Shown here: in pieces, positions 13,290-64,000 of the stretch
Numbering within the stretch: position 1 is the first letter of the stretch
Layout of the letters: each line of letters begins with the position of its first letter
DNA from: Welwitschia mirabilis
Taxonomy: Eukaryota
Direction of reading: 5' to 3'
NCBI GenBank assembly: GCA_051453625.1
Contig: JBOZIK010000001.1
Location: forward strand, 15,903,427 to 15,967,426
DNA length: 64,000 nt
The notes under the pieces: generated by a model
Databases searched by the model: none
Told to the model about the DNA's origin: nothing
The model's input: the letters and a program-made list of their open reading frames with translations, nothing else
Program-made: the position numbers and the translations under genes

Positions 13290-16200
13290 ATGACAAAATA
13301 AAAGTCCTCCTCATGAATAAGGGCTTCTAAAATAAGTGATTCTATCATGTTCAAGGTTTTATTAGGAGATGACCCATAAATTTTTAACCTTTGATCATTA
13401 ACCTTTTGAATTTCTCTAATGTTTCAATTGAAGATTTTAACTGATCCATTTGAGTGTAATTTTTTATAAGATAAGTACCTAACCATTTATAAGTTAACTT
13501 GTTATGTAAAAGATGTACTCAGGTGTTATATAAAAGGATATGTTGATTAGGTTTAAATTACTTATGAATAATATTTTCATCATGTCTAAACCTGACTTGA
13601 GGTTTATGAATGAGTTGATGATGTAAAGCATGACTAATTTTTTCATCTAAATGATTGAGTTGGGATAATCAAATTTTTAAATTGTCATTCAATTCTACAA
13701 GGTTAAGCTGATGAGTAAATCAATAAGAATTATAGCAAACATCAACTAGTAACATACACTCTTCATCTTACACAAATTCATAGGGTAAGAAACCTAGGGA
13801 ATTATTCTAAGTAGTGCAGTAAGCCTAAAGAACATCATTAAGTTTAGAGGATTAAGTTTTCTTATTGATAGAGAATAATTTTTGAAGCATCGTTTTGATT
13901 TCTCTATTTGTGTTTTTAGCTTTTTAATTAGTTTAAAGATAATAGGCACAAGCAATTCTATATTCAAAAATATTTTTTTAAAAAAGGTGATTAATAAAAT
14001 GATTTTCCTAATCACTAATGATAATTCATAGAAAACAAAATCATTAAAAGATATGAGTTCGAACAAAGTTGCAAATAGTTTGGAAATCATTTTTGGTAGT
14101 ACGAATAACTTCTACTTAGTTAGTAACATAATCCATAGCTATACGGATATAATTTTNNNNNNNNNNNNNNNNNNNNNNNNNNNNNNNNNNNNNNNNNNNN
14201 CAATAATCAAAAGGTTCACATCCAAGTATAGGTTTTAGGAGCATGTTATGAGAACATGTTAGGCTACCATAGTGTTGAAATGCATCACACTTTCTAGAAA
14301 TGTCAAATGAGTCTTTGAAAAGAGTAGGCCAATAAAGACTAGAGTGAAGAATTTTCATGATGGTCTTTTAGCCAATAAAATGTCCTACACATATCCACCA
14401 TGGAAAAGTTCTAAGATTTATAAAGTTTCCCACCCAGGCATATACTTATGCATAATTTAATCTTTACAACATCTATAAAGATGGGGTNNNNNNNNNNNNN
14501 NNNNNNNNNNNNNNNNNNNNNNNNNNNNNNNNNNNNNNNNNNNNNNNNNNNNNNNNNNNNNNNNNNNNNNNNNNNNNNNNNNNNNNNACACACTTACACA
14601 TAATTTGATCTTTACAACATCTATAAAGATGGGGTTCATTCCACTCATAGTCACCAATCCTATGAAGACGATTTTTACATTGGTTATGACTCCAATGTAA
14701 AAGATGTTTCATTGTTACAAGTTAGTTTATGATGTCAGCATACCAAAGAGTGAGATGAAAAGATGAGATATCATAAATTTATTTAATCACAAAGAGTTAT
14801 TCATTGAGAAAAGATTCATTAATGGGAGTTTCATCATGAGAGAAATAAAGTCGAGATAAATGATCAATAACATTGTTATGTTTTTTAGCCTTATTAATGA
14901 TATTAAGATTAAATTCTTTCATGAGAAGGATCCACCTAATAAGTATATTATTAGAGTCTTTTTTAGTTATGAGATAGTAAATGGCTGCATGATTTATGTA
15001 AACCTTAATATGAAAACCAAGAAGGTAATGTAGAGGATAATCTAAGTAAAAGATAATGACAAACATTTCTCTCTCTGTAGTAGTGTAGTTGGATTAGGCT
15101 ATGGAAAAGTTTTTACTAAGATAAGATATGACTTTGAAACCATTTTCACATTTTTAGCAAATAACTCCCCCACAGCAATGTTACTTACATCACGTGTAAG
15201 TTCAAAGTCTTTACTTCTATTAAGACCCATGATAATAGGTTTAGAAGAAATCTTTTCTTTGAGGGTTTTAAATGCAAGTTGGCATGACTCATTTCAATCG
15301 AATGTAACATCTTTGTCAAGTAAGGAGTAAAGAGGTTTATAAATTTTGACATAATCATTAATGAAGTATCAATAAGAACCAACATCACTAAGGAAAGATA
15401 TAACTTGTTTGACATTAGTTAGAAGGCTAAGGTTTTTAATGATATCAAATTTTATGGAATCCATCCTAATCCCTTCTTTTAGAATGTGATGATCTAAAAT
15501 ACTTCCATGTTGGACAAAGATAAAACTCTTTTTCCAACTCAAATATAAGCCACTCTCAAGANNNNNNNNNNNNNNNNNNNNNNNNNNNNNNNNNNNNNNN
15601 NNNNNNNNNNNNNNNNNNNNNNNNNNNNNNNNNNNNNNNNNNNNNNNNNNNNNNNNNNNNNGACATCAATCTAGGACTTTTTCTAATCTCACTATAATTT
15701 GTTCAAAAGTATTACCAAAGATGGATAAGTCATCCATAAAAATTTTAATATAATATTCTATCATATCATAAAAGATTCCCATCATGGCTTGTTGGAAGGT
15801 TCCAGGGGAATTGGAAACTCCAAAGGGCATTTACCTAAAAGCAAAGATTTCAAAGGGTGAGGTGAAAGTGGTTTTAGCTTGGTTTTCTCTTACTATACAA
15901 ATTTGATTATAGCCATTATACCCATCAAGGAAATAATAGTAGGAATGACCTTAGATTCTATCAAGTACTTGATCAAAAAAGGGCAAAGAATAATGATACT
16001 TTTTAGTGACCTCATTAAATTTTCAAAAATTAATGCACATTCTCCATTTCCCCCCTTCTTTGGAACTACTATTAAAGGACTAATCCACTTACTATTGGAT
16101 ATGGCATATACAATTTTGGCATCCATAAGTTTAATTATTTCATCTTTAATGATTTATTTAAGGACTTAATTAAGTCTTATTTAGGGCTATTTAATAGGTT

Positions 16201-29390: not shown

Positions 29391-30018
29391 TAAAAAATAT
29401 CGACTATGACGGAGATTCGTACAATTAAAAGTTTAACATTTACTACCATATAAAAGACTTCGAAACTTGTCAAATATAGACTTACAAACATAACAGAATG
29501 CTTTCAAACTTACTAATTACAGACATGACATGGTAAGGATTCACAAATAGAATAATGATATGTAGCGACGAATGTCGACCAGCCAAAACTTTTATATCCA
29601 GGGAATTTGCAATTCAAATGAGAAGACGTAGCCAAAATGAGAAGACATAGCCAAAGCAGTTGTTGACACTTGTACTGCCATGGCTGTCAAAGCACAGTCC
29701 TTTTCCCCTTCAGAGCGTGGATCATGGACCACAACTCTCGCTGCATCTCCACTTCACTCGTTGTACGCAACATGAAACCCAGCGCACTCTGAAATGACAA
29801 AAGTAAGAGAGAAAATCGTAAACTTTTGCATTTGCAAGTTTTTGCAGAAGGTACAGTGATTCCCTCTCTTCTCTTTCTCGTTCGTCCTCTTCCGTTTTCC
29901 TTTCGCACTTCGATCCAAAATCTTCTTACGTAATCCACAGTCCGGATCTCCTTTTTATGCTTCATAACGTGAATTGTTATTTCAGAACTCTGGAAATCTT
30001 TGAGTCCGGAACTGAAGA

Positions 30019-30711
30019 ATGATGACAGAAATCGCAGATTTAAAGAATAAGAATCATAAGCGAATTTCAGGTCCTTCTGCGAGTGTTTCGTCTTCCGCGT
30101 GTGAGGTGATACGGCGGAGATGCTCCCGCTCTTCGGCTCCGCTTCTTCCGAGCACCGCTGATCAAATAAATTCAGACGAAAGTAAGGAAACGGAGAAAAC
30201 GGAGAAGCAGAAAAGGAAGCAAAGAACGAATTTTCAGTGCGGACATCTGGCGAGATTCGCAGCTTCGTTGTTTAGCTGGAAATATCACAAGCGCAGCAAC
30301 AGCAGTAGCACTTGCCTTTCGAAAACCGCGTCGAATAACAGACCTTGTGAATATTCTAGCCGTAAAGAAGCTACGCGTGATGAGAGTTATGGGAAGAATA
30401 ACTTGATAGAACATGATGGAAACGCAGAGAGAGGTATGGAATCGGATTCAGAACTCTTTGATCTTCCGTCTTTCAAGTATGCAGATGCTGAAGCTAAATC
30501 CTGCACTACCGTTGTCGCTGCTGCACCTCTCTCCCTCGTATCCGCCAAAAGAACAAGTAAATTCACTAAGAAGAGCGATCTGGACGAAGATGACAGCAAG
30601 AATGGAGGGAGAAGTAGTGGCTCCAGTTCAGATCTGTTTGATCTTCCTGCATTCTTCCTTTTAGCACAACCTGCAACTCATGCAGCTTTCACTACAGCTT
30701 GTGTCACATAA
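30019..30711 (+). CDS. BG1-like: BIG GRAIN 1-like protein (230 aa, intronless)
   Basis: The only long intact ORF, in a CpG-rich island. Motifs GHLARFAASLFS (cf. GGRLASFLNSLF), SSSTCLSKT (cf. SRSCLSKT) and SSSDLFDL (cf. SSDLFEL) occur in BG1 family order. A pyrimidine-rich leader lies upstream. Family assignment is from recalled motifs. Confidence 0.8.
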   Translation: MMTEIADLKNKNHKRISGPSASVSSSACEVIRRRCSRSSAPLLPSTADQINSDESKETEKTEKQKRKQRTNFQCGHLARFAASLFSWKYHKRSNSSSTCLSKTASNNRPCEYSSRKEATRDESYGKNNLIEHDGNAERGMESDSELFDLPSFKYADAEAKSCTTVVAAAPLSLVSAKRTSKFTKKSDLDEDDSKNGGRSSGSSSDLFDLPAFFLLAQPATHAAFTTACVT

Positions 30712-31506
30712 AATGGAGTGAAGTACAGGTGATTCATAGATTTTCATTTGACTAAGAAAATTTCTAACCTTGGAAACGGTGATAAGATTTCTTTGACGAT
30801 TGTGGTGGATATCTAAAAACACCTGGAAATTTTTTTTGAAATCCTCTATTTTTGTAGATAACTTCTTGCAGTGGATTTAGTCTGGAAAATGTTTGGGCTT
30901 CCGCGAATAAGACTTTCGGAGGAGACATTTGTGTGGATAGCCTGTTGGTCCAGGTTTAGTGAGCATATGAACAATCAGTACAAGGATGATTTGTTTCATC
31001 AGGTCTTTTTACTAGTTTTTATTTTAACTTTCTGTCTACATCTTTTGACAAATTTTCAAGTTGTTTTGAGATTTTATTAATAGTTATAATTTCATATATT
31101 TAGTTGCAAAGCGAAGAGTGTTAGCAAGTTCATCAAATCTAATGGTTTTGTAAGGAAACAATTTCAGTTTATGTATTTAAATAAAATATATTTGTTATTT
31201 TTATTTATATGTTAATAAATTGCATGCTTCTTAGAAATTCGAAATCAAAAGTCATTTGATAGACTTAAAAAAGACAAATGTGAATATTAAATTTTTTCAA
31301 AACATCGAACTACAAAAACAAATTGGGAAAAACGAAAATTTATGGTCATTTATTAAGAAGAGCATTATTTCTCAAAAGCAAAATACGCTCAAGAAAATTT
31401 ATTAGTATAACTTTGTTAAATTTAGTTAAAAACATTTTAATGGCAAAGCAGTGCTCCTATAACTTTGTATTTCTGAGTTCAATTATAAAATAAAAACTCT
31501 TTCAGC

Positions 31507-38840: not shown

Positions 38841-40301
38841 TGAGGATTATTAAATTGAGAAGAGAAGGGTGAATGAGTTTCATTAAATAAAATTTAAATT
38901 GAATTATAAAATGAAAATGTACAATAAAAACACCATATCAAATGACATGATTATCCAACTTGGGTACATTCACATACAAAGGATACCTTCTACTCACATA
39001 TCTAGATATTCTTAACCTAAACGAAAATAGTGGTTTTCTAGCACATCACTAACCTTTTGAAAAATGCAAGTCACCTCATAAGATAGTACTCTCTTCACCT
39101 CAAGGGAAAAGTGGTTTTTATAGTTGCATCATGAACCTTTATAATAGTAAAGCTCTCCTCGTAAGGCAACACTCTCTTCCTCATAAGAAAATAATGGTTT
39201 TCTAACTATCTAGTAATATTAATTAAACAAGTGCCTTAAAGCACAATCTAAAATGCACACTCCTACAAGGACTGCCTTACAAAGTGTTTGATATTTAGGA
39301 ATGGACTTACAATAATATTTAATAATAAGATAGTCCAAAATGTAAACTAAAAGAACAAAGCAATAATAAGCCTAAATATTTTTCTTTGATTATGACTTAA
39401 TCTCCTTGATGATGTTGTTATTATCAAAATCAGGAATCAAGATAATAGCACTATAGATTCAAGATTTAAAGATGAAAGTAATGCAAGCTTCATGCTAATG
39501 ATTCCTTGATTCTTCATGAGAAGTTCCTTTCACTTGTGCATTTGTCATTCTTGATCTAATTATTGTGTATCAAGATTCAAATTTGAGTATTCATTATTGT
39601 TCCAAAAGTTCTTCTTTGTTTTGTCATGTTGAGTCTTTATATGATTTAGAAAGATCTAGCTTTTTGGGCATGAAATTTAGCCATTTAACTTTATAACCAT
39701 CATATAATGGATAAAGAGCATCTAGGCATTAGACACATAACTTTAGTTTTAATTGACATGAACTTTGATTTGAGATATCTTCTAAGAGTCATAGATCTTT
39801 ACCTTATAGATGTCTTTAGTTAACTTGCACAAATCTAGATGAATTTTATTCTATAATTTTCTTAGGCCATTTTGACCATGAATCTGTGATGTATAAGTTC
39901 ATATCTCACCTAAAATCCTAGTTATTAGTTTAAAAAAATTAAATTTATTACTTGTTTTAGCTTAGTATGGACATCTTCAAATATGTAGATGTTTTCATCT
40001 ATGTTAGGTTCAACTTTAAACTTAGTTATCGTGAATAGGTAATCGTCTTTTAACCTATGACTTGATTTTAGTACATCCAAAACATCTTCAAATTCCTTGA
40101 CATATTTACTTAAAACATATTTAATATTTTATATGTTTTCAAATAATTGATCTTATAGTTTTAGCATCTAATCCTTTTATAAGATGTTGTAGCTAAAGAT
40201 CCATTATGATTCTAGTATCTATCAAGATTTGATGTTCTTGTGATAACCTATTTATGCAAAATATTTGATAAGTGGAATCATCAAAACTAGATTTATCAAC
40301 A
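38841..40301 (-). repeat. SIRE 3' LTR
   Basis: TGAGG...TCAACA; colinear with 45938-47425. Confidence 0.9.
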
Positions 40302-44129: not shown

Positions 44130-45885
44130 TTAATTGGAAGTACTTTGTAAGGAAGTTTGTATTAGAAGTTTTAATTTTTCTTTTGATACTGAAGCATTTC
44201 TTAGTTTAAGTTGCACAAAATGTTGTACCATTCTACTAGACCTTTTGGTCTTATTAGTATAATACCTATTTTTATACTTTATTAGACATCTATACTCATA
44301 ATAATCTTTATTATAATAATAATAGCAAATAATATTATTTGTAAATTCCAAATGTTCATAACTTGACTTGTATTTTCCCTTGTCATATAGAGAAACTAAA
44401 GTGCCAGTTGTGACTATATTGTATTTCAAACCACTCTTGTCATTTGGATTTCTATTTTGTTCAAGCATGATATTTAAAGTCTATTTGCCTTATGTAGATC
44501 TTTTAATGAGTTTATTTAAATTTGAAAGCTCTTATTTTACATTATCTAGTTCATACATTAGACTATTAATCTTAGCTTTAAGAGCTAAGTTTTTAAAGGA
44601 CAAATTTCTACAAGCATCATTTTCTTCTTTATATTCATCTTCATGAGTATGAAGTATCTCTTTCATTTTAGTACATAATTTTTGTAGATTAATAAATTCT
44701 TCAACAATTACAATATACTTTTCTTTAATACTCATACCTAAGTCATCTTTACTATCTAAATCATAATCTTCTTCTATCTCATCATCTTCTTCTTGAAGGT
44801 GTGCAATGTCCATGTATGAAGGATGTGCTTTCTTATTATTAGATGTTTTTTCTTCTATTGACTCTTTACCATCATCCCATCATATAAAAAATGATTTATT
44901 CTTCTTTGGATTTTTATTTTATTTTTTATCCTATAATTTATTAGTACTAAGTTATTCTGAGGCTATATGTTCTTGTCCTCCACATATCCAACATTCTACT
45001 TTTGAAATATTAAGAAAAGAAGCATTATTAGAAGACATACCTTTGGCTACAAACTTAGATTGTTTTTTGAAGTTCTCTCTTTTATTGTATTCACATGAAA
45101 GAATTCATTTTACTCTTTTTGTAATAGAAGTAAGTTTCTAATTGTCATCATTAGATCCATCTTATTATTATTCTTTATTCACCTTTTCTTTTAATGTTTG
45201 ATTTGTGCTTTGGCTTGCCTTAATATAATAGGTTTTTCTTTTAATGATTCATCTTATATGAGATTCATTTTGTATGTTATAAAAGTACTCTATAGCTTTT
45301 CTATCTTTATTATGTTAAAGTCTCTAGATTCTTCTATGGCCATGGTATTCAGCCTTTATTTAGGGGCTAGTTATCTAATGTTTTATATTACCTTCCCTTC
45401 TGGAAGATCTTATCCAATGTCATGTATTATGTTTAAAACTCTAGTAAAGTACTCATATATCTTTTGTTCATGGTTCATCTTAAGATCCTTAAATTGATAT
45501 GTCCAGACTAAAAGCTTAGATTATTTTACAATAGACATGCCTTCATATGTTCCAATTAGAACATTCTAAATTTCTTGTATCATATTACAACCTACTATTA
45601 TATTGAACTATTTATTAATAAAGTAAAATAAAGTGCATTCTTATATTTAGAGTCATACATAAAAGAATATTTTTCTTAACCTAACTAGTCTTTACTTTTC
45701 ATGATCTAAGTAATGATATTATTTGTAGCATTTTTAACAGTCTCCATATGGTCCAAATATCCTTATTCTCTACTTTGTTATATTTAAAAATTAAAATACT
45801 ATAAGTAAACTTGCATCCTATCTTTTTAATAGACATAGTTTCTCCCATTAAAGAGTAGAGGTCTAATAGATGACATCCCTTCCAT
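44130..45885 (-). pseudogene. SIRE extended gag relic with two zinc knuckles
   Basis: MEGMSSIRPLLFNGRNYVY*KDRMQ start; ECWICGGQEHIASE near 44960-45000; coiled-coil ORF 44532-44813; ORF 44130-44468 (DKSGL...IICYYY...YRC). Confidence 0.85.
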
Positions 45886-45937: not shown

Positions 45938-47425
45938 TGAGAATCATTAAACTTAAATGAGATGGATGAATGAGTTTTACCAAATTAAATTTAAATCAAA
46001 TTATTGAATGAAAATGCTCAATAAAAAACACCTTATCAAATAATGTGATTGCCTAACCTAGGTACATTTACACACAGAGGGGAGCTTCTACTCACACCTC
46101 CAGATATTTTTGACCTATAAGAAACTAGTGATTTTTTGGTATACCACCAACTTTATAACAAATAAGATTCATCTTATAAGGTAGTAATATCTTTGTCTCA
46201 AGGAAATAGTGGTTTCAATAGGTGCACCATCAACCATTATAATAATGAGAGTGTCTTCAAAAGATAACACTCTCTTCCTCACAAGGGAATAATGGTCTTC
46301 TAGCTTAATAACAACCTCACATCAAATAAGTACCTAAAAGCATAATTTCAAATGCATATTCCTATAAGAGCTACCTTATAAAGTTTTTAATATTCAAGAA
46401 TGAACTAATAATAATATTTAATAATATAATAGTTTACAATGTAAACCAAAAGGACAAAATAATAACAAGCCTTAAGATTTTATCTTAATAAGATTTAAGA
46501 TCCTTGATGATGTTGTTATCATTATGAGTATCAATGAAGATAATAGGAATGTAGATCTAAGATCTAGAGATGAACTTAATGCAAGTTTCTTGCTAATGAT
46601 GTCTTAATTCTTTATGATAAGTTCATTTTACTCATGTATTCATTATTTTTAATCTAGTCATTATGTGTCGAGATTAAAAGTTGAGTAATTGTTATCATTT
46701 CAAAAGTTCTTCTTTATTTCATGGCGTCAAGGCTTTATACATTTGAGGAAGATCTTATCATTTGAGCTTGAAAGGTAGTCGTTTAACTTTGTAACTATCA
46801 CACAATGAATATGAATATCTAGGCATCAAATTCATGACTTTGGTTTTAATCAATGTGAACTTTGGTCTGAGATGTTTTCACTTTTATAAACATCTACTAA
46901 TAGTCAGATGTCTTTACCTTATAGACATTTTTAGTTAATTTGCTTAGATTTTATTGAGTTTTACTATTTAGTATACTTAGTCCTCCATGGTTACAAATCT
47001 ATAATGTACAAGTTTAGAGATCAATTCAAATCCAAGATATTAATTAAAAACAATGGACTCTATTCCTTGTTTTAGCTTAGTATAGATGTCTTCAAATATG
47101 TAGACATCTTCATCTATGTTAGGTTCAATTTTTAGCTTAGTTATCTTAAATAAGGTAGTTTTCTTTTAGCTTATGACTTGATTTTAGTACATTCAAGATG
47201 TCTTCAAATTCCTAGAAACATTTACTCAAGACATTTTGAATATTTTAGAAATCTTCAAACAATTGATCTTGCTATTTTAGCGTCTTATCTTTTTTATGAG
47301 ATGTTATCTCTGAAGATCCATTATGATCTAGTATTTATCAAGATTTTATGTTCTTGTAATGACATGTCTATACAATGACACAAAATATTTAACAAGTAAA
47401 ATTATCAAAACTAGATTTACCAATA
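45938..47425 (-). repeat. SIRE 5' LTR
   Basis: Adjacent to the PBS (TACCA at 45931-45935); colinear with 38841-40301. Confidence 0.9.
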
Positions 47426-52700: not shown

Positions 52701-53419
52701 NNNNNNNNNNNNNNNNNNNNNNNNNNNNNNNNNNNNNNNNNNNNNNNNNNNNNNNNNNNNNNNNNNNNNNNNNNNNNNNNNNNNNNNNNNNNNNNNNNNN
52801 NNNNNNNNNNNNNNNNNNNNNNNNNNNNNNNNNNNNNNNNNNNNNNNNNNNNNNNNNNNNNNNNNNNNNNNNNNNNNNNNNNNNNNNNNNNNNNNNNNNN
52901 NNNNNNNNNNNNNNNNNNNNNNNNNNNNNNNNNNNNNNNNNNNNNNNNNNNNNNNNNNNNNNNNNNNNNNNNNNNNNNNNNNNNNNNNNNNNNNNNNNNN
53001 NNNNNNNNNNNNNNNNNNNNNNNNNNNNNNNNNNNNNNNNNNNNNNNNNNNNNNNNNNNNNACATTTTCTTAATTAAATATTTATCATCATAAGTTTTAA
53101 TTATTTATTTTGTATCTAGTGATTTAGATATGGTTAATTTATAATATCTTCTATATCATTTTGAAGGGTTATGATACTTCTCTTCTGAAGTGTAATCTAT
53201 GGTCAAATCCTAGGTGGGACTAAGGCTCTTTTCGACTCAAGGGGAGCCTAGCCATGTGGTTGCTCCTTCTTCTCCTAGGATTTGATAGAAATATGCTCCT
53301 AAGTTATCTCCGCCTGAATTATGAATGAATTTAGCTTCTCTATCTGAGATTCTATGGATGGAGTCAGTTCTTTCTGAGAGCTAGGGATTCCCTATTCAAT
53401 GTTCCCCTTAGATCAAGAA

Positions 53420-53666
53420 TGTAATGTTCCAAAATCATTAATTAAATAATGATATATGTTAAACACTAATGATGCATGGTTAATAACATATGTAAATGTG
53501 TGTAATCCAAATATGTAAAGATGTGTCCCTTCATTATGTAGTATAAGCCTATGGCATTAGGTAGAGGTGAATAGACTGGGTGGATTTAACCGATGATAAC
53601 CTTGCTTAATCTCCAAGGGTCCCAGAAGGGGGACTAAGGTCATAGTTCCTGTCTTTACCTATAACC
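53420..53666 (+). repeat. Partial LTR of the chromovirus family, cut by an N gap
   Basis: TGTAATGTTCCAAAATCATTAATT...; colinear with 54827-55072. Confidence 0.9.
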
Positions 53667-54199
53667 NNNNNNNNNNNNNNNNNNNNNNNNNNNNNNNNNN
53701 NNNNNNNNNNNNNNNNNNNNNNNNNNNNNNNNNNNNNNNNNNNNNNNNNNNNNNNNNNNNNNNNNNAAAATTGATATCAAAATGTATTACATAGTTTAGA
53801 AACTTTATTAATTAAAGCTTACAAAATGTGGGTTATAACAAAAATCACTTACCTCTATTCTCAAATGAAATTTGTTCTCCTCATCAGGTGAAACAAGATC
53901 ATGAGATGAAACAAGAAGTAGAAGAATCTTTTCCTTTTATTGAGATCAAGATGTTCAAGATGAAGATTCCTCCTAAGCACACATCTATGAAAAAAAAGCA
54001 ACTTAGTAATAAAAAAGCTTAAGAAAAATAAGGAAAACATAGTATTATAAAAAAAAAAGAATACCTTATCAAATAACATAACACCGACAGATGAATACAC
54101 AAGGTCACCCTTCTTATTAGAAAAAAAATATGGCTTCATAAGGATCAAGTTGAGGAAGAGAAGATAAAGGTATGATAACATTAGAAGGAAGATTAGATT

Positions 54200-54826
54200 A
54201 TTGAATATTTATGAAGGAGGTGCCATCATGAAATGCAAAGTACAAGGATAGAAAACCCATCTATAGGTTAGAAGACCACTATCAAAATTCTACTTTGTCC
54301 TATCAAGCTATGAAATAATCTTTGAATAAATGATAAAACTCTAATCATAGGAGACATCCTTGTAGGGAGCAATAGATAAAAGATACAAAGCATATTTTAA
54401 AATCATAGATAATCGAGAATGTAATAAAACTCTACAAGAAATTAGTAGTCTAAGAGACTTAAAGTGGAAGACAGGAATAGTCTTTAAGGATTTCCCATGA
54501 TAGCCATGTCAATGCAATTTTTCACCGATAAAATCAAAAGATGTAGTTTCTAAAAAGTTTAAATTCTATAATTCATAAGTATAAAACTTTATGAGCTTAA
54601 GAATACCTTGAGATAAGCCTAAAATATCTTAAGTCAACTATGCATTAATGGAAACCAAATCAAACTTTGAATACAAAAGAACTAAGTTTTTGTATTATAA
54701 GAAAAGAAAATAGAGTCCAAACTCAACCAAACTCCTCTTAATTTAATAAATTACAAATGTATTCATCCACAGAATAAAGGTTACAAGTAGACCAATAAGT
54801 TTTTGGAAAGGCTTTTGAAGGGTTAT
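54200..54826 (+). pseudogene. Possible L1 ORF1 relic, target of the chromovirus insertion
   Basis: Weak DUF4283-like pattern and a decayed knuckle (CIHPQNKGYK) near 54757-54787. Confidence 0.3.
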
Positions 54827-55245
54827 TGTAATGTTCCAAAATCATTAATTGAATAATGATGTATGTTAAGCACTAATAAAGTGTGGTTAATAAGAGATGT
54901 GAACAGGTGTAATCCAAATATGTAAAGATGTGTTCGTTCATTATGTAATATAAGCCTATGGCATTAGATGGGAGTGGATAGACTAGGTGGATGTAACCAA
55001 TAACAATGTTGGCTAATCCTCAAGGGTTCCAAAAGGGGGACTAAGGCCATAGTCCATGTATTTACCTATAACCATTAGTATAAGACTATTTTCTAATGAT
55101 GTGGAATGTAAAATTCTGCTATTAATAATAAAAGGCTGCTTCTTTTTAAATTTTTCCTTGTTATTTCTATGAATCCTAGTATATTATTTTAAATATTCTC
55201 TTTTTTTTTGAAAGTAATCCAAAAATAGTAAAATGGAACATTACA
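54827..55245 (+). repeat. 5' LTR (419 bp) with 12-bp perfect terminal inverted repeats
   Basis: TGTAATGTTCCA ... TGGAACATTACA. Confidence 0.93.
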
Positions 55246-55247
55246 TT

Positions 55248-55260
55248 TGGTATCAGAGCC
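55248..55260 (+). promoter_or_regulatory. Primer binding site (tRNA-iMet)
   Basis: TGGTATCAGAGCC, 2 nt after the LTR. Confidence 0.95.
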
Positions 55261-55399
55261 AATAACAAGTGGTAAATCACTACTTAAGGAAAACAAGAAA
55301 GAAACTTAGTTTATAAATTAAATAGCTAAAGGCCAAAGAGTACATCAAAGGATAGGAATATAATGATCAAAAAAAGCAAGGTGCCAACAAAAATAGGGT

Positions 55400-56609
55400 T
55401 TATAATACCTTGATAAAGAAAATTAAAACATCACTACTAAGGAGGAAGAAGAGCCTCCATAGAGAAGTTAACAAGGTTGTGATCCTTCATGCTTAGGATG
55501 GTAGGCTTCATGTCATTGGATCTACTTTCATCCCCATAGGCTATGTTGGAACTGCCACAATACTAATTTTAATTAAAGAAGAAGCTTCTATAGATTATGC
55601 TCTACTAATAGGATATGGCTACTTATAGAGCTTCATATGAAGCTCAATATAAGCAATCAAAGTCCCCAGTATATGTTCTTTAGAGATCTTCCCATCATAA
55701 TATAATACATTGATGTTATCAATAGTAATGGCTAAATAATCCACATAGGCCTAAATCATCCTCTCACTCTTTGTTAGCTGAGTAGACAAGGCAGTTTGAC
55801 TTTCTTCTATTGCAGTCATACATGAAGCATCTACCTATGATTTCTTCTCTGAATAATGCATGTTATACCTCATTCGCTAACATCTAGAGGAAATCACTCA
55901 TGGACTTCCACTCATTGATCCCATGATGAGCCATTCAGTAAAATGACTCCATCATATCAATCATGTTATAGAAATCTTGGAGTGGAGAAGGCTATTCACA
56001 CTGTGAAGAATAATGAAGGGTGAAATAATCAGAATGAATGTATTGAAAGTTCCATGGTACATTTGTTTCCTTAGATTGATGATGGATGTAGACATCATCT
56101 AGTCTTAAATGATGTGTAACCTATGCATGCAAAGGACTGAAAAGGGACAGTTAATCCCCTATCTAATCCATCAAGTCCTTGACCTTAAGGTACAAGGTAT
56201 TTACCATTAATAGAAGCTGATTGATATGATAAGATACTTAACATTGTTCATTTATAATGAAATATGGAGCTATAGGAAAGTGGTGAGAAAGCTTTAAAGA
56301 AGAGTAAGCAATAGGAGGACTCTGACTTAGAGGGTAAAAATAGAGGGTTGGAAGAGGACATATCCCCTTGATCCATTAAGGTATCAAAATCATTAAGTAC
56401 CTCTTCTCCTTGAGATTTGAAAGAGAACAATAAATCCATGAAGAGGCCATTAGAAGGGGCAGAAGGAAAACTTTCACTTACAATGATGCACTCCTTCCTT
56501 AACTACCGATAAGAGAGCTTCTCTAAAGGCTATGGGATAAAATCCATATTCTTCTTGACCAAAGTCTCTGCATAAGAAACCTAAAATAAAATGAGCAAAT
56601 ACCTATGGT

Positions 56610-56647
<38 letters not shown>

Positions 56648-56747
56648 NNNNNNNNNNNNNNNNNNNNNNNNNNNNNNNNNNNNNNNNNNNNNNNNNNNNN
56701 NNNNNNNNNNNNNNNNNNNNNNNNNNNNNNNNNNNNNNNNNNNNNNN

Positions 56748-56819
<72 letters not shown>

Positions 56820-57729
56820 AAAAAAGAGATGGTAGTGGATGATACCCCATGGAGTTAGTGTTGCTTAGAAATACTAAGGAGTACATCCTCTTCATATTTT
56901 AGGTCTACATGCATAGGGCAATTTACTAGAGCTTTTTCATGTTTCTAGTAGAAAGAGTCATAAGATCCCAAAGCCTTACTCATCTACAAACAATAAATAA
57001 TAAAAACTAGAGTTATTAGAAATATAGTTAATAATAAGATTCCTTAGCAAAACTCATACCTTAGATGGAATAGAGAAATTACTCTGAGATCTCTCTCCAG
57101 GGTTATATCTCTTAAAGCCTTTATCCTCCATAGATGAGGAAGAATGAGGATGTAATAAAGATTAAGAAGCAATCTCATGAGGAGCTAAAACATAAGAGGA
57201 ATCTACAGAAATAGCCATAAATGATTATAGAACCTCTAAATCCCTAAAAGAAAAAATATAAACTAGTAAAATATGATCACAAAAACACTTCCCCTTTCCC
57301 TATTTTTCTTTAAGTGGGTTAATTAAAAAAGAGTGGAAGAACAAACAACTAAGGCCAAATCAAAAGAAACTCCACTAGTGAAAAAAGTGAATAAGTAAAT
57401 TATGTAGGTGGGAATCTCACTCACCCAATCATGAAGAAAGGCCCTACTAGCAATCAGCTTTCTAAAAGCTACAAAATATGAAGTGGTAAAATTGATAGTA
57501 GAGATCATATGGCGATAGGTATCCACCTCCTGCATACACATAAAATCATCCAAGAAATTGGCCAAGACGTAATGGATATTCTCATCTAAATAAGAGACTT
57601 TAAGAGTAACATGATTACCTTCACTTATTTTAATGATCAACTAGATGCTCTCCTCTAAAATTTGAATTGGACCATGGTGAGTATAGATAATGATATAAGT
57701 ATGTGTATCAAAGGAAGAATATAGGGAAT
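55400..57729 (-). pseudogene. Decayed spliced antisense accessory gene of unknown function inside the chromovirus
   Basis: Long minus-strand reading frames (including ORFs 57323-57640 and 56248-56439) broken mostly by single stops consistent with C>T changes. A candidate intron 57059-56581 (AAG|GTATGA...TTTATTTTAG|G) joins two frames in phase 0. Confidence 0.6.
56610..56816. repeat. (GA)n microsatellite spanning an N gap
   Basis: Read directly from the sequence. Confidence 0.95.
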
Positions 57730-58308
57730 CTAGGATGAAAATAATTATAAGATGATAAAAATAGAAATATGAAAAGCCACAGAGATTTAAGAAATTAGAG
57801 GAGAAGACCTAAGAGAATCCTTACTCTAAAGGGTGTTATTGTATTTTCAACTTTATAGACCTAACATTGGAAGAATTCTAAGAAATGGTTGGAAAATGTT
57901 TGGAAGACATACCTTAACCAAAAGAAGAAGTACATCTACAAATATTAAAGGGAATTCATATTTATAGGTAAAAAAAAGTTATGAAGGGCCTACACAAAAA
58001 ATAAAAAAGGAAAAAAATATTAAAATAAAAGCAAAGGAGAAAATAAAAATATCAAAAAAAGAGATAATGGAAGAATAAATAAAAAATTACTAATTTAATT
58101 ATGGAGGCATGTGATAAAAAGAAGTAAAAAATGACAAGACCATGGATCTATTTATAGCAGTGTAACAGGGTTTAACCTAATTATAAAATAATAATTTAAC
58201 CTAATCCTAAAATAATAATTAACTATAGTTAATGATATCTCAGTTAAATGGAAACAACTCCAGTTAACTACAAAAAAACCAAGGCCCTAAAATATAGTGA
58301 ACTAAAGG

Positions 58309-59075
58309 CCAATGTCACAGTCTTAAATGGTCAAGATTGCACTGTAGAGGTCAACATCGCACTTCCAAATGGCCGATGTCATACTTCATAGGCCAACATT
58401 ACACTCTTAGATGACTAGTGTTTCACTTCAAAGACTGAACCAAAGGACCAATGTCACACTTCCAAAAGGCTGACGTTACACTTTGAAGGTCAGTTTTACA
58501 CTTTAAAGGCCCACATCTCACTTGGTCTCACCAAACTTGATGTTGTAATTTGAAGTCCCTCAAAGCCTGATGTCATACTTGGGTGCTTAACATTACATTT
58601 GGATGCCCAACATTGCACTTTTCCTTTATAGGTCTAGATTTTACTATTTTTCCACAAAAATTACTTGCTCTACTCACTTGCCCTAGGAATCCTAATGTCG
58701 CGCTTAGGTTGCCAACGTTGCACTTGAGTGGTTGACATCGCACTTGAGTGCCTGACATTGCATTTGCCCCGCATAGGCCCAAAACCTTTTGTCATATATT
58801 AGAAATCACACATTCTTTCACTGACACAAAGGATCTAATGTTGCACTTGGATGGTCAATGTTAAATTAGAGTGGCCCATGTCACACTTGGATGGCTGATG
58901 TTATACTTTGGTGCTTGATATCAGACTTGTTATCTGTAACCCTAAAATCTTTTATTGCCTCTTATAAATCACCTATTTTGTTCACTAGAATAAGGGTCTG
59001 ATGTTACACTTGATGGTTTGATGTCATACTTAGTGACCCGATGTCGTACTTGAGTCCTTGACACCATCCTTGGAC
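58309..59075 (+). repeat. Degenerate tandem array, about 20-22 bp period, inferred core CCGACGTCGCGCTT
   Basis: Roughly two dozen variants such as CCAATGTCACACTT, CTGACGTTACACTT, CTAATGTCGCGCTT, CCAACGTTGCACTT and CCGATGTCGTACTT. Confidence 0.85.
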
Positions 59076-59499
59076 GCTTGGTAACACGTGAATTCCCTTT
59101 GACAATTGTTAGCCATGTTAGTAAGTTTGCTATGGTAACTGCTAAAACCTATTTTCTCTAACCATTTTCTTAACTACTAGGTGGTTATAGATTCCCAAAT
59201 ACCACCAACAACACTATAAAAAGGTAGCATCACTAGAGGTAAAAGGGGAGGGAGAGCAAGAGAATACTTTCACAATAAGGCAGAGATGTATAAGTTGAAA
59301 AAGGCAGTGAACCCACTAGTATATCATGGAACACAAGATCAATGGATGAATTATGCATTAGAAGGCCAAATTAATAATATCCACTCCTAAAATTAACAGT
59401 TAGCTAATATGATCAATAGCTTTCTTTCTCACATAGAAGAAAGACCTATAGAATGCAACCTAAGGGCATCTCAAGAACTGCCATCCACATCAGGACAAC

Positions 59500-62400
59500 A
59501 TACTCCTACAACTAATATTAACCTCTAAAACATTCAAATGAGGTTATTAAACATGGAGGCGAATCTTCAAGATTTTTTGATAAATAAAGCCAATCATTCT
59601 AACATTGAACAACATGAAGAAGAGGAACTTATAAGAATGAAATTTTGAAAGACCTATGAAGGCAAGCCTAAAATAAGTGAGGAACCCATATCTTGGATCT
59701 AGTAATTAAATAAGTATTTCAAACTTTAAACTATACCTCTAGAAAGGTGGTGCATATATGTTATTGCATTTATTATAGGAAATGCACAACAATGATGCTC
59801 TAGATATCAACAGAAACACCTGCATAGGATATCATGGATTACTTTCATTAAAGAATTTAAAAGAAAATTCATTCTAGAAGATTTTATTGAAGATTAAATG
59901 GTGGAATTTCAATGTATACACTTGGGTAAATGATTATTTGATGAACATTGGTTAGAATTCTAATGTCTTAAGAACTATCAAAAGAAGTTTTTAGAAAAGT
60001 AACTAATTAATAGTTTTATTGGGACTTTTTCATCCAAACTTTAAAGCGTTCTATGCACTTTGAAAATCGAGTCCATAGAAGATTCCTAATGAAAAACAAG
60101 GTACTATCTCTAAGGACAAAAGAATAGATGAATGAACTAATCATACCAAGGAGATTGGCATCCTCCTTCAATCACAGCACTAACAAGGAAGCCATATAGA
60201 ACAAATTGTACCTATTATAAGTACCATAAGAGGGAACATATTACCAGGAATTATATTTCCAAAGCATAACCATCAAATGTTCCCTAGCACAATTAGCCTC
60301 AAACTCTTTAGAATCAGTCCATGCCATCCAAAAGGATTTATGTTGCCATTCAAACATGTGCTTACAATCAATACTTCATCTTAGAACTATGTCATCATAT
60401 TTCAACATGTTATTGTTTAATTTCTAATTGATATTAGTGCATCACATAATTTCATTTTACCATCTTTATTTTACAAATTAAATATCACTTCTTTTAAAGA
60501 ATAAAAGTCCACCATAGGAGTTACAGGAGATAGTGTTCTTACATAAGATGGAACTATTGCTCTTATTACTTTTACCATTTATAACTTATAGTCTAGGGAT
60601 AAGTTTTATATCTTATAAATTCAAGAAAATCATACCATTTTAGGAAATCATTTCTTAATTAGATATAATGTTTATATTAACTTTCATCAAAGAACCTTAT
60701 GGCTATCTCATTTATTTGAACAACAAAATTTTAAAAGGGAGTAGAGGAGTAAAAAATAACTTTTTAACCTCATCCAAATAAATTACAAAAGTTATCAAAA
60801 GGAAATAGATGTTCATTACTTTAGTACAAGAAAAAGATCATAAAAAAGGTCCTTTTGTACTAGAAGAACTAAATGAATTTTCAAATGTATTTGAAGATCC
60901 ACAAATGCTACTACTCAAGAGAAAATTACAGCACGCAATTAATTTAATCCCTCGAGCACAGGTAATAGCTAAAGCATCTTATTGTTTCTCAAAAATAGAA
61001 CTAAGAGAACTAAAGTTATAGATCAAATAGCTATTATTGGAAGGAAAGATGCATCTTAGTATGTCACCATGGGTGAAACTAGTATTATTTATTAAGAAAA
61101 AGGATGATAACTTATCACTCTACATGGACTATAGATAATTCAACAAAGTAACCATCAAGAATAGATACATACTATCATGGATCAATGACCTATTAGATTA
61201 ATTGTAGGAAACCAAGTACTCTTCAAAGATCATTAAAAATCTAGATACCATCAGATCTGTATCAAGGATAAGGACATCTATATAACTTCTTTCAAAATAA
61301 GATATAAACATTAAAAATTTGTAGTAATGCCTTTTTATTTGACAAATGTCATAGCCACTTTTATGAATTTAATGAATGATGTTTTTTGGACATACTTGAA
61401 TAAATTTATGGTTTTATTTTTAGATGATTTCCTAATATATTCTAAAAGTTAGAATGATCATGTTACACATTTGAATAAAGTTCTATAGGTTTTTCCCAGT
61501 TCTATAGATTTTTTCCAAGATAAATTCAAGAAAAAATTAAGTAAATGTGAATTTTATTATACATAAATCAATTATCTGGAGCATATCATCTCCAATAAAG
61601 AAAGTATAACACATTAAGCTAAAGTACAAGTAGTAAGAAAATGGCTAAAATTAAAGGATGCCAGTCAAGTACGAAGTTTCTGAAAATTGGCTAGCTTCTA
61701 CCAGAAATTTGTTCTAGGATTTTCTCAACTTGTAGTACCATTAACAGATTTTACTAAAGTGAGAAATACATTCTACTTCGATGATAAATGCAAGGAGGCA
61801 TTTCTTATATTCAATTTACTACTTATAACAACACTAGTCCTTAAGATTATAGATGTAAACAAATCATTTATAGTCACCACAAATGCATTTACTTAAGGAA
61901 TTGGAGCCATACTTAGCTAAGATGATCAGGTAATTGCATATGAATCATGGAAACTAAACCATCATGAGAAGAACTATTACATACATGACTTGGAATTATT
62001 ATCCATACTTCATGCCTTAAAGATTTGGAGGTATTATCTTATGGAAAGTGAATTCCTTTTCAAAACAGATCATAAAATCTTGGAATCTTTTCAGAAACAA
62101 CCCCTTTTAAATATGCGATAGAGGAAATGGGGTGAGTTAATTAAAAAATGTAACTTCAAGTTACAATACATGCTTGTAAAATAAAACAAAGTGATAGATG
62201 TCTTGACTACAATGTGATGTATATTAGCTACCACTATCACATCTGACTTGTCCACCTTCATTAAAACTTCCTTGATTGATGATTCATACTTCAAGGACAT
62301 ATATCAATAAGTTCAAAAAGGAAAAGAAGTAGATACATATATAATCTTATGAGATGGATTCCTTCTGAAAAGAAGATAATTATGCATTCCATAAGATCCA

Positions 62401-63650
62401 TAGAGAAGGACGCTAAAGTCTAAACTGCATAAAGTTTCATATGCAAGACATTTGGAATTTGTCAAAAAATACCATCAATTATAGAAATACTAATTTTGAC
62501 TCAATATGAAAGTAGATTTAAAAGAATACATTTGCAACTATCCTATATGCTAGTAGATGAAAATTAACCAAGGAAGACCCACTAGACATCTTCAGCTATT
62601 AGGAATACCATAATGGAAATGGAAAGAGATATTCATCACTAGGTTACCTTTCACTAATAAACATTATGATGTAATTTTTAATTATGTAAATAGCTTAATT
62701 AAGATAGCCCATTTTATCCTACTCTGAATTACTAATATAGTAGAAGAGGTAGATCTTCATTTTATATAGAAGGTCTTTAGATTATATGAAGCACCTCAAG
62801 TTGTAGTATCTAATTAAGACCTAAAGTTATTATCTAAATTTTAGCAAAGCTTCTTTCACCACTTGGGTATCAAACTCAATTTTAGTATTGCTAGATGACC
62901 AAATAGAAAGAATAAATCATATATTGAAAGAAACTCTAAGATGTTATGTGGCAGGAAGGCTCAAACAATAGAAAAACTACCTACATCTAGTAAAATTTGC
63001 TTATAACTAGATATTTCAAACTTCCATCCATTATTCACCATTAGAGACAATATATGATAGAAACTATTCTACCCCTGTCACATGATTAGATCCTTCATAG
63101 AGATTAGAAAATACAACGCCTTCAAAATTAAATATAATGGAGGAAGCAATCAATAAAATAAAATACACCTATAGGTGACACAAGATCAATATAAGAAATA
63201 TTATGATTAAAAGCACTAGACCTGCATATTTTAGATAGTTAAATAAGTTTTATTAAGAATTAAGCCAAAAAGAAACTCCTTGAAAATCAAAAAGTATAGG
63301 ATATTAGTACCACAGTTCAACAATCCATTTAAAATTATTGAAAAGATTGTGAATCTAGTTTACAAACTAGAGCTTTCTCTCCAAATGTCCCAAATACATC
63401 CAGTTTTTCATGTGAGCATAATGAAACCATACTATAAAGATTAAAACTAGGACTAAACCTTGAACTAGCAATATATCATGCTCAAACCCAATTTGACTTT
63501 TATTATTCAATTAGAAAAAGTCATAAGTACTAGACCTAGGCAACTAAGAAATAAAATTATAAAAGAAGAACTTATTTAATGGACTCATTATAATCAACAA
63601 ATAGGGTAAAATAGGGAGTACATATAAAAGACCTTTTCTAGAATTTTTAA
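59500..63650 (+). pseudogene. Chromovirus gag-PR-RT-RNaseH-INT-chromodomain relic
   Basis: LIDISASHNFI at 60424; FLDD at 61417; RNase H HEKNYYIHDLELL near 61960; PFKIIEK...IHPVFHVS at about 63325-63417; chromodomain-like EKVISTRPRQLRNKIIKEELI*W near 63510-63582. Confidence 0.92.
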
Positions 63651-63836
63651 TAAAGTTTGATATACCATTTTTAGGTTGTATTATTAATGTATATATTAAT
63701 TAAATGATGTATTCTCTTTTGTGTTATGTATTATAGCTTATACCAAAAATAACTCAAAGTTGCATGACTTTAATAATGATGCAAATAGAAGAGAGAATGT
63801 ACTCAAGAATAAGCAAGATTATTAATAGGAAGGGAA

Positions 63837-64000
63837 TGTAATGTTCTAAAACCATTAATTGAATAATGATGTGTTTTAAATGCTAATGATGCATAATTAA
63901 CAAGAGATGCAAATGGGTGTGAATTAAATATGTAAAGATATATTTCTTCATTATATAGTATAAGCCTATAGTATTAGGTAAAAGTGGATAGATGAGGTGG
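63837..64000 (+). repeat. 3' LTR (partial, runs off the window)
   Basis: TGTAATGTTC... after the PPT; colinear with 54827-54990. Confidence 0.92.

Follow-up and report, generated by a model that had tools for sequence, protein, structure and literature searches.

The window, that is the whole stretch of 64,000 nucleotides analysed here, carries in a TE-dense and strongly deaminated region a single very old, dead and heavily decayed copy of a chromovirus of the Tekay/Del type (Table 1). The element has TG...CA ends and a tRNA-type primer-binding site (PBS), as is expected for the LTR structure of a chromovirus. The PBS, TGGTATCAGAGCC, presumably matches the initiator tRNA-Met. Further downstream, Pfam domains follow each other in the expected chromovirus order gag - RT - RNase H - INT, with RT, RNase H, integrase zinc finger and SH3 held in a single frame, and no protease domain was detected by Pfam in gag-pol. 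The protein relatives are Tekay/Del-like polyproteins, including Lilium del1-46. At its C-terminal end the integrase can be aligned with one relative, P0013, inside the Pfam Chromo domain of that protein (residues 1458-1506); the chromodomain remnant is seen via this alignment only, with no Pfam Chromo detection in the window copy itself, and PF00385 is present in 11 of the 120 listed relatives. An earlier reading of this DNA from its letters alone (the sequence-only reading) had called the element a chromovirus, and the one-frame domain array, the Tekay/Del-like relatives and the P0013 alignment support this assignment.

The age and decay of the copy are evident from its LTR pair, which differs at 36 of 164 positions (31 transitions and 5 transversions; K2P 0.278), from the near absence of CpG throughout the element and from the number of stops in each gag-pol frame. 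Given that CpG is depleted everywhere, CpG and GC content provided no discrimination as relative age markers of the spacer between PBS and gag. The first ATG in the gag frame is located at 59286, leaving a spacer of 4,025 bp (55261-59285), in agreement with the approximately 4 kb noted previously.

Table 1. Features of the element and of its PBS-gag spacer (positions in the window)
Feature	Position	Strand	Remarks
Third LTR copy, partial	53417-53666	+	Same LTR family; cut by a 100-N gap
5' LTR	54827-55245	+	419 bp; termini TGTAATGTTCC...GGAACATTACA, an 11-bp terminal inverted repeat
PBS TGGTATCAGAGCC	55248-55260	+	Starts 2 nt downstream of 5' LTR
S1, period-3 segment	55500-55900	not assigned	chi2 up to 23.0 in 240-nt windows; phase fits minus frame anchored at 59278
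S2, period-3 segment	55860-56280	not assigned	chi2 up to 19.5; phase fits minus frame anchored at 59279
P3, stop-poor frame	56248-56580	-	Includes the VSYAETLVKK...MDLLFSFK piece and an 84-aa ORF (56251-56502)
(AG)n microsatellite	56610-56816		Two parts, 56610-56647 and 56748-56816; reads (TC)n on the minus strand
S3, period-3 segment	57060-57300	-	chi2 up to 21.4; holds ...MEDKGFKRYNPGERSQSNFSIPSK; terminates at donor-like AAG/GTATGAG, 57059
S4, 161 codons with one internal stop	57323-57808	-	Includes a 105-aa ORF (57326-57640)
A-rich stretch	57975-58110	+	
Degenerate ~20-bp tandem units (GATGTCACACTTG-like)	58310-59071	+	Array adjoining gag; no period-3 signal
Decayed gag-pol	59286-63600	+	97-138 stops per frame
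Retrotrans_gag	59769-60020	+	Pfam, E 0.0018, below cut-off
RT (RVT_1)	61234-61578	+	Pfam
RNase H (RT_RNaseH)	61780-62145	+	Pfam
Integrase zinc finger (Integrase_H2C2)	62401-62562	+	Pfam
SH3 (SH3_Tf2-1)	63247-63432	+	Pfam
Chromodomain remnant, first half	63508-63582	+	Aligned to P0013 residues 1458-1482
Polypurine tract AGGAAGGGAA	63827-63836	+	
3' LTR, truncated by window end	63837-64000	+	

Coding-like signals in the spacer

The spacer is a composite of a probable coding relic, an (AG)n microsatellite, an A-rich stretch and a repeat array. A 100-N scaffold gap (56648-56747) sits within the microsatellite, with (AG)n on both flanks, and the microsatellite would be the part that the assembly failed to cross. 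The approximately 0.8-kb array of degenerate 20-bp repeats adjoins gag; 12 of the 22 matches to the GATGTCACACTTG-like motif in the window fall within 58375-59052, with 11.98 expected by chance.

Taken one by one, the open reading frames of the spacer are unremarkable. Stops number 79-96 in each minus frame of 55260-59279 (about 1,340 codons), the same as the average over the shuffles, and the longest ORF free of N has 105 aa. ORFs of this length were matched in 79 of 1000 shuffles and those of 84 aa in 161 of 1000, and both single minus-strand ORFs are therefore within chance. Rarer is the 161-codon span S4, the longest with one stop, which was equalled in 10 of 1000 shuffles. The minus strand is rich in T and C and yields longer random ORFs, the mean longest ORF in shuffles being 80 aa on the minus and 70 aa on the plus strand; the longest plus-strand ORF of the spacer has 56 aa.

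A different picture emerges from period-3 composition, tested on the two N-free blocks with dinucleotide shuffles that preserve the strand bias. The chi2 maxima of 27.4 (block 55261-56609) and 28.0 (block 56817-59285) were reached by none of 1000 shuffles each. In a calibration on 370 segments taken across the 64 kb, periods 2, 4, and 5 passed p<0.05 in 4.3-4.6% of cases and p<0.001 in none. The signal resolves into four segments, the strongest of which is S4, and their inferred phases match stop-poor minus frames; P3 shows weak period-3 (chi2 10.5), and the LTR, the A-rich stretch and the tandem-repeat array show none.

To assign a strand, we compared observed stops with those expected from position-specific composition. 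Four homology-confirmed decayed genes served as controls and gave 37/54.6, 5/8.7, 6/14.2, and 2/4.7 observed/expected stops in the true frame, with ratios near 1 in the opposite in-register frame. The minus frames of the spacer total 22 stops against 32.0 expected, with the depletion residing in S4 (1/4.2), S3 (2/4.8), and P3 (3/6.7), whereas the plus in-register frames contain 40 stops against 30.1 expected (9 vs 4.8 opposite S3 and 7 vs 4.2 opposite S4). S1 and S2 are depleted on neither strand (S1: minus 8 vs 7.2, plus 8 vs 6.6; S2: minus 8 vs 9.1, plus 7 vs 7.5). Some of these frames were picked for looking open, which makes the P of 0.04 optimistic. The minus frames lose stops as homology-confirmed decayed genes do, and there is some statistical support for reading the coding trace at 56.25-57.8 kb best on the minus strand. 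The purine fraction of the putative coding strand in S4, S3, and P3 is 0.41-0.43, and pyrimidine-rich coding strands of this kind are unusual among genes. Two further strand tests were dropped: a model of nucleotide use by codon position, although trained on pol, did not pick out pol's own frame, and a rule based on C outnumbering G at codon position 2 broke down in the controls.

Proposed introns and searches for relatives

The sequence-only reading had gone further and proposed a spliced antisense gene. All four peptides that it quoted are present on the minus strand, but VSYAETLVKK...MDLLFSFK crosses two in-frame stops. For the first intron, GT at 57059-57058 (AAG/GTATGAG) and AG at 56582-56581 do join in phase 0, yet the joined frame is open for only 34 codons upstream and 16 downstream. 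The (TC)n tract lies inside this intron, as had been stated, and so does the scaffold gap, so that the intron length is nominal and the two halves are, strictly, only presumed to be contiguous. For the second intron, GT at 57912 and AG at 57731-57730 exist, but only 22 + 24 codons are open, the joined frame differs from that of the long ORF, and the upstream exon has neither an ATG nor a period-3 signal. Donor-like sites, taken as those that agree with the canonical donor at 6 or more of 8 positions, number nine on the minus and seven on the plus strand of 55261-58000; three of them end stop-poor pieces (57912, 57424 with GG/GTGAGT, and 57059). The GT/AG pairs of the proposed introns are ordinary chance dinucleotides, and an antisense gene that is intact or can be shown to be spliced is absent from this copy. 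With no open joined frame, splice motifs at chance frequency and a gap within the intron, the spliced gene is without support, while the broader claim of antisense coding sequence retains some statistical support from period-3 and minus-frame stop depletion, albeit in broken frames.

No relative of the spacer was recovered at the protein level. Even with E values of 1 or 5 allowed, Pfam searches in the six frames returned no real match (the sole one being low-complexity DUF3915 on (RE)n), and among the domains of known extra ORFs none of PMD (PF10536), Transposase_28 (PF04195), and Athila ORF-1 (PF03078) was found. Given that Pfam matched just one of 10 other period-3-rich stretches of the window, and that one weakly, such silence is normal for decayed coding sequence here. 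A HMMER search with the minus frame anchored at 59278 (55681-59278) against 1.84 billion protein representatives, which include many plant TE proteins, gave only a low-complexity (LS)n match. Homologue searches returned 17 candidates of lengths 89-284 for S4 (P0008; 57323-57808, minus), none at E<=0.01, and 8000 candidates without a homologue for 56100-57201 minus, covering S3 and P3, where the search words were probably mostly (SL)n and little informative. Searching the PDB by phmmer with the three minus frames produced zero, zero, and one chance match (E 0.48), and metagenome contigs scanned with pieces of S4 and S2 yielded 594 and 43 pattern matches and no relative. The plus frames of the spacer showed no similarity to N-terminal extensions in a set of 120 related polyproteins (best E 0.53).

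Protein language-model recognition of the 105-aa ORF was low (1213, best match 0.78) when compared to an equally decayed 70-aa pol ORF (3027, matches at 0.96), and an AlphaFold2 model of P0008 computed without alignment was uninformative (mean pLDDT 34.7). Rfam detected nothing at E<=0.1 in 54700-59400, and a search of 55200-59400 for long repeats, direct or inverted, was negative. Within the window, blastn and tblastn recovered the LTRs and one unrelated RT fragment, but no second internal copy. Nested-element termini, poly(A), and a convincing TSD were not found in the spacer; the best bracket is a 17/20 direct repeat (55357-55376 and 58042-58061), which was equalled in 24 of 200 shuffles.

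Readings of the leader

The reading we prefer, and to which we give about an even chance, is that of a dead Tekay/Del-type copy whose leader carries a broken, orphan antisense coding relic and no spliced gene. Approximately 2.3 kb (roughly 55.5-57.8 kb) would represent the worn remains of protein-coding sequence, best read on the minus strand over 56.25-57.8 kb at the minimum and now interrupted by stops and changes of frame; they have no detectable relative and presumably no function today. Extra sequence entering the leader in antisense orientation is the likely origin, and we lean towards a private nested or captured fragment, which we regard as about twice as probable as an extra ORF of the element family.

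By established retroelement biology, an antisense ORF that belonged to the element would be handed on unaltered by the sense-strand RNA genome together with any introns, since splicing and reverse transcription act on the sense RNA alone. A family-wide, stable antisense accessory gene between PBS and gag, possibly with introns, perhaps an anti-silencing factor, and decayed in this copy, is in our view unlikely. In its favour are the period-3 signal and the shortage of stops in the minus frames, the donor-like motifs at the ends of three stop-poor pieces and the failure to find termini of a nested element; antisense extra ORFs are also known from Tat, Retand, and Ogre elements (PMC7264820, PMC11963269, PMC4408406), and the extra ORFs of plant elements covered by PMC6317226 are mostly without known domains. 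However, both proposed junctions fail to open a frame, donor-like motifs are equally frequent on the plus strand, the exon upstream of the second intron lacks period-3 and ATG, the frame with the longest span is unmatched in the 1.84 billion representatives, and the Tekay 5' extra ORFs described in PMC11728184 are on the sense strand. That a Tekay-like lineage once had an antisense leader gene of several hundred codons, maybe intron-bearing, with this copy as its fossil, is equally unlikely. If other copies carried a conserved antisense gene in the chromovirus leader, retrotransposon accessory genes would gain a new position, orientation, and lineage, and the element would provide a natural example of introns shielded from its own splicing.

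Next in probability, and again unlikely, is a long and purely non-coding leader, in which the signals reflect purine/pyrimidine strand bias and post hoc choice of windows. The chance-level ORF lengths and stop counts, the stretching of random ORFs by a T/C-rich strand, the low recognition score, the poor pLDDT, and the missing homologue would all be accounted for. What this explanation leaves aside is period-3 itself: shuffles preserving the bias never reach the maxima in either block, periods 2, 4, and 5 act as a null, and the signal is confined to parts other than the LTR, the A-rich stretch, and the tandem array. The comparison holds a general caution, namely that in AT-rich DNA that has decayed, long frames on the strand rich in pyrimidines, and GT/AG pairs as well, come up by chance; period-3 composition and stop depletion can still mark former coding sequence when homology fails.

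We assign a small probability to two pieces of the same family, an LTR+PBS stub and a 5'-truncated gag-pol-LTR, with unrelated DNA such as a pseudogene between them, possibly joined by scaffolding. One family in one orientation, with complementary parts in order, makes a single element the simplest solution, and (AG)n flanks the gap on both sides. The scaffold gap in the middle and the polypurine tract-like GAAGGG that precedes the 5' LTR are nevertheless compatible with two pieces, as are the LTR comparisons, although these counts depend on 164 columns: the 5' LTR differs in 22 of 164 shared columns from the partial copy that lies 1.4 kb upstream of it but at 36 positions from the 3' LTR, which is the outlier among the three copies with 23 private changes compared to 13 and 9. 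The least probable account, in which the remains are those of a Tekay-type sense-strand 5' extra ORF and the minus frames its in-register shadow, would suit the location between 5' LTR and gag of a Tekay-like element (PMC11728184), the ambiguous strand of S1 and S2, and a plus strand that is purine-rich as retroelement sense strands are, but it conflicts with the excess of stops in the plus in-register frames, the depletion of the true frame in four of four controls, the short plus ORFs and the lack of similarity to polyprotein N-terminal extensions.

Comparison with known systems

A broken antisense relic in a dead copy resembles the nested or captured fragments of old plant LTR retrotransposons in its TE-dense, deaminated setting, its inflated leader, and its content without relatives, and differs from nested insertions in that insert termini, poly(A), and a convincing TSD are lacking. 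Extra ORFs (eORFs) of such elements have been defined as at least 250 codons outside gag-pol (PMC6317226), and the spacer, with its 105-aa ORF and 161-codon span, falls short of this length. Full-text searches of the literature turned up no chromovirus with an extra ORF that lies 5' and in antisense orientation; the supplementary lineage lists of PMC6317226 and PMC11728184 may record some.

Antisense extra ORFs are described for Ty3/gypsy elements other than chromoviruses, including Grande gene23, RIRE2, the TRP28 ORFs of Retand, and the PMD ORFs of Tat/Ogre (PMC7264820, PMC11963269, PMC4408406). In common with the relic, those reported there are antisense to gag-pol, are accompanied by long non-coding regions and tandem-repeat arrays, and have no assigned function. 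They are mostly located between pol and the 3' LTR, whereas the relic is found 5' of gag and in a chromovirus, and many of them carry PF04195 or PF10536, neither of which Pfam detected in the six frames of the spacer.

A parallel by position comes from the Tekay clade, for which conserved sense-strand 5' aORFs have been described in sunflower Tekay group 2, maize Tekay, sorghum Sb7, and rice Retrosat-2 (PMC11728184). The premise that chromoviruses typically lack extra ORFs is thus only partly right. Like these elements, the copy analysed here combines a Tekay/Del-like pol with coding-like sequence between 5' LTR/PBS and gag that contains no known domain. The coding strand of the Tekay aORFs is that of gag-pol, whereas here the minus frames are depleted of stops and the plus frames are not. 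As described in PMC11728184, the Tekay aORFs are sense, open, about 400 aa long, and conserved in hundreds of copies; the sequence in this leader is broken, best read on the minus strand, and known from one copy.

The chromovirus and its surroundings

Between the LTRs of the retrotransposon beginning at 54827, Pfam identified, in order on the plus strand, Retrotrans_gag (E 0.0018), RVT_1, RT_RNaseH, Integrase_H2C2, and SH3_Tf2-1. Stops number 138, 97, and 128 in the three plus frames. Of 7175 candidate proteins retrieved with the pol stretch, 356 matched at E<=1e-5, the top one at E 3.6e-164 with ~30-33% identity. Pfam did not detect a chromodomain in the window copy; 63508-63582 aligns into the Chromo domain (residues 1458-1506) of the related polyprotein P0013. 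Given this alignment and pol relatives that include Lilium del1-46, with PF00385 in 11 of the 120 relatives listed, the element can be assigned by similarity to the Tekay/Del-like chromoviruses.

Features of the element, and stop counts in spacer segments and control genes
Feature	Position	Strand	Stops, observed / expected	Remark
5' LTR	54827-55245	+		419 bp; termini TGTAATGTTCC...GGAACATTACA
PBS	55248-55260	+		TGGTATCAGAGCC; starts 2 bases beyond 5' LTR
Polypurine tract	63827-63836	+		AGGAAGGGAA
Second (3') LTR	from 63837	+		start only; cut by window end
Third LTR copy	53417-53666			partial
S1	55500-55900		8 / 7.2 (minus frame)	period-3 segment
S2	55860-56280		8 / 9.1 (minus frame)	period-3 segment
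P3	56248-56580		3 / 6.7 (minus frame)	stop-poor minus frame
S3	about 57000-57300		2 / 4.8 (minus frame)	period-3 segment
S4	about 57300-57780		1 / 4.2 (minus frame)	period-3 segment
Control pol			37 / 54.6 (true frame)
Control gag			5 / 8.7 (true frame)
Control second gypsy fragment, first part			6 / 14.2 (true frame)
Control second gypsy fragment, second part			2 / 4.7 (true frame)

The element is old, since 36 of 164 aligned positions differ between its 5' and 3' LTRs (K2P 0.278). With 31 transitions to 5 transversions among these differences, a GC content of 0.21-0.34 (2-kb windows) in the AT-rich window, and CpG nearly absent throughout the element, the region looks strongly eroded by deamination, a process that riddles genuine genes with stops and lets long frames arise by chance on pyrimidine-rich strands. 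The window holds 15 N gaps and no second copy of the element's internal region. The partial LTR 1.4 kb upstream is nearer the 5' LTR (22/164 differences) than the 3' LTR is, private changes number 23 in the 3' LTR and 13 and 9 in the other two copies, and a PPT-like GAAGGG precedes the 5' LTR. The pattern across 53417-55245 may reflect a tandem array with a common middle LTR, or gene conversion between adjacent LTRs.

Elsewhere in the window, the minus strand carries two paralogous stop-poor frames with strong period-3 (1202-2398 and 3003-4199; 12 and 10 stops per 399 codons), one with a weak Asp_protease match (E 0.0023), and the pair probably represents the gag-protease regions of another retroelement, present in two copies. 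With 120 polyproteins as queries, tblastn located an unrelated second fragment of Ty3/gypsy RT and RNase H on the minus strand at 14800-16076 (up to 142 bits). Nowhere in the window is period-3 stronger (chi2 45.8) than in a stop-poor minus-strand frame at 44253-45299, which shows a CCHC-knuckle-like motif by eye, has no Pfam match, and sits within a pair of 1.2-kb repeats 7.1 kb apart (38926-40178 and 46024-47294) that resemble a second element's LTRs. A Ser-rich plus-strand frame at 30001-30900 (6 stops/300 codons, chi2 up to 32.1, GC 0.32-0.34), for which Pfam returned no match, may be an exon of a host gene or a further orphan TE ORF.

Coding-like signal and strand in the PBS-gag spacer

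The first ATG in the gag frame lies at 59286, which puts 4,025 bp between PBS and gag and bears out an earlier estimate of ~4 kb. The sequence-only reading had proposed a spliced antisense gene in this composite spacer (55261-59285), and its observations were confirmed, and its interpretation supported, in part. All four peptides that it quoted are encoded on the minus strand, but the frames are not open (91, 79, and 96 stops per ~1,340 codons). GT and AG dinucleotides do border its two candidate introns (donor 57059 with acceptor 56581, and 57912-57730), yet neither join stays open far: the first for 34+16 codons, and the second for 22+24 codons without an ATG, missing the frame of the long ORF. 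The (TC)n tract lies inside the first of these intervals, but encloses a 100-N scaffold gap (56648-56747). Long ORFs and donor-like motifs of the spacer are no more than chance gives: minus-strand ORFs of 84 aa and 105 aa were matched in 161/1000 and 79/1000 dinucleotide shuffles (21% and 7.4% in a separate 500-shuffle run), and the minus strand has 9 donor-like motifs vs 7 for the plus strand.

Period-3 signal, scored as chi-square of nucleotide against position modulo 3, peaks in the spacer at 27.4 (55261-56609) and 28.0 (56817-59285), each reached in 0/1000 shuffles of its own block; in gag-pol it rises to no more than 18.5. Across the 64 kb, control periods 2, 4, and 5 were null in 370 windows and period 3 was enriched (20.8% of them at p<0.05, 5.9% at p<0.001), as expected where a region consists of decayed coding repeats. 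Fine mapping placed the signal in segments S1-S4, and detected none in the LTR, the A-rich stretch, or the 20-bp repeat array. Phases read from the G-poor second position agree with the stop-poor minus frames, and 57323-57808 forms a 161-codon minus span with one stop (matched in 10/1000 shuffles).

Two simple strand tests were dropped after failing on positive controls. A third compared observed stops with those expected from position-specific composition, using four homology-supported decayed genes as controls; their opposite in-register frames had stops near expectation in 4/4. Spacer minus frames carry 22 stops overall against 32.0 expected, and plus in-register frames 40 against 30.1. Because stops are depleted in minus frames, as in the controls' true frames, the 56.25-57.8 kb part looks like what was once a minus-strand gene, which is suggestive rather than proof given that the frames were partly picked for looking open; in S1 and S2 the test favours neither strand. 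Against a minus-strand gene, the minus strand is pyrimidine-rich here (purine 0.41-0.43), and the 105-aa ORF is low in a protein atlas (recognition 1213, best match 0.78), where a 70-aa pol ORF in the same state of decay reaches 3027, with matches of 0.96 to RT_RNaseH_2.

Origin of the putative coding-like relic

Across all six frames of the spacer Pfam found no domain, its sole match being DUF3915 on an (RE)n translation; PMD, Transposase_28, and Athila ORF-1 are thus absent. The missing match is weak evidence here, because only 1/10 other period-3-rich stretches of the window had one, itself weak. A search of 1.84 billion protein representatives with the frame that contains S4 and part of S1 brought up no relative (single match, (LS)n low complexity). 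No relative emerged from a word-indexed protein library (two queries, the second compromised by low-complexity words), the PDB, or two metagenome scans, nothing similar from 120 related polyproteins, and nothing from Rfam.

An antisense coding-like relic is plausible, and the most economical reading is a dead copy whose leader holds such a relic, broken and lacking a detectable relative, together with tandem repeats and a microsatellite. The sequence-only reading is biologically sound in arguing that retrotransposition would spare antisense introns; those proposed here are candidates only. Genomes of this kind often contain leaders swollen by nested DNA, and partly for this reason we lean towards a private insertion or capture into a single copy. 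Nested-element termini were not found in the spacer (the best bracketing repeat was matched in 24/200 shuffles), which keeps alive the unlikely reading of the relic as a gene of the element family.

Catalogues of plant elements include extra ORFs of both orientations and at both ends (PMC6317226); those in antisense are typical of Tat, Retand, and Ogre, where they lie 3' of pol (PMC7264820, PMC11963269, PMC4408406). Full-text literature searches, supplementary tables of such cases lying outside their scope, turned up no chromovirus described with an antisense 5' ORF. Further support for a private insertion or capture comes from Tekay groups, in which 5' extra ORFs are conserved: those described are sense-strand and open (PMC11728184), whereas the spacer relic is antisense and broken.
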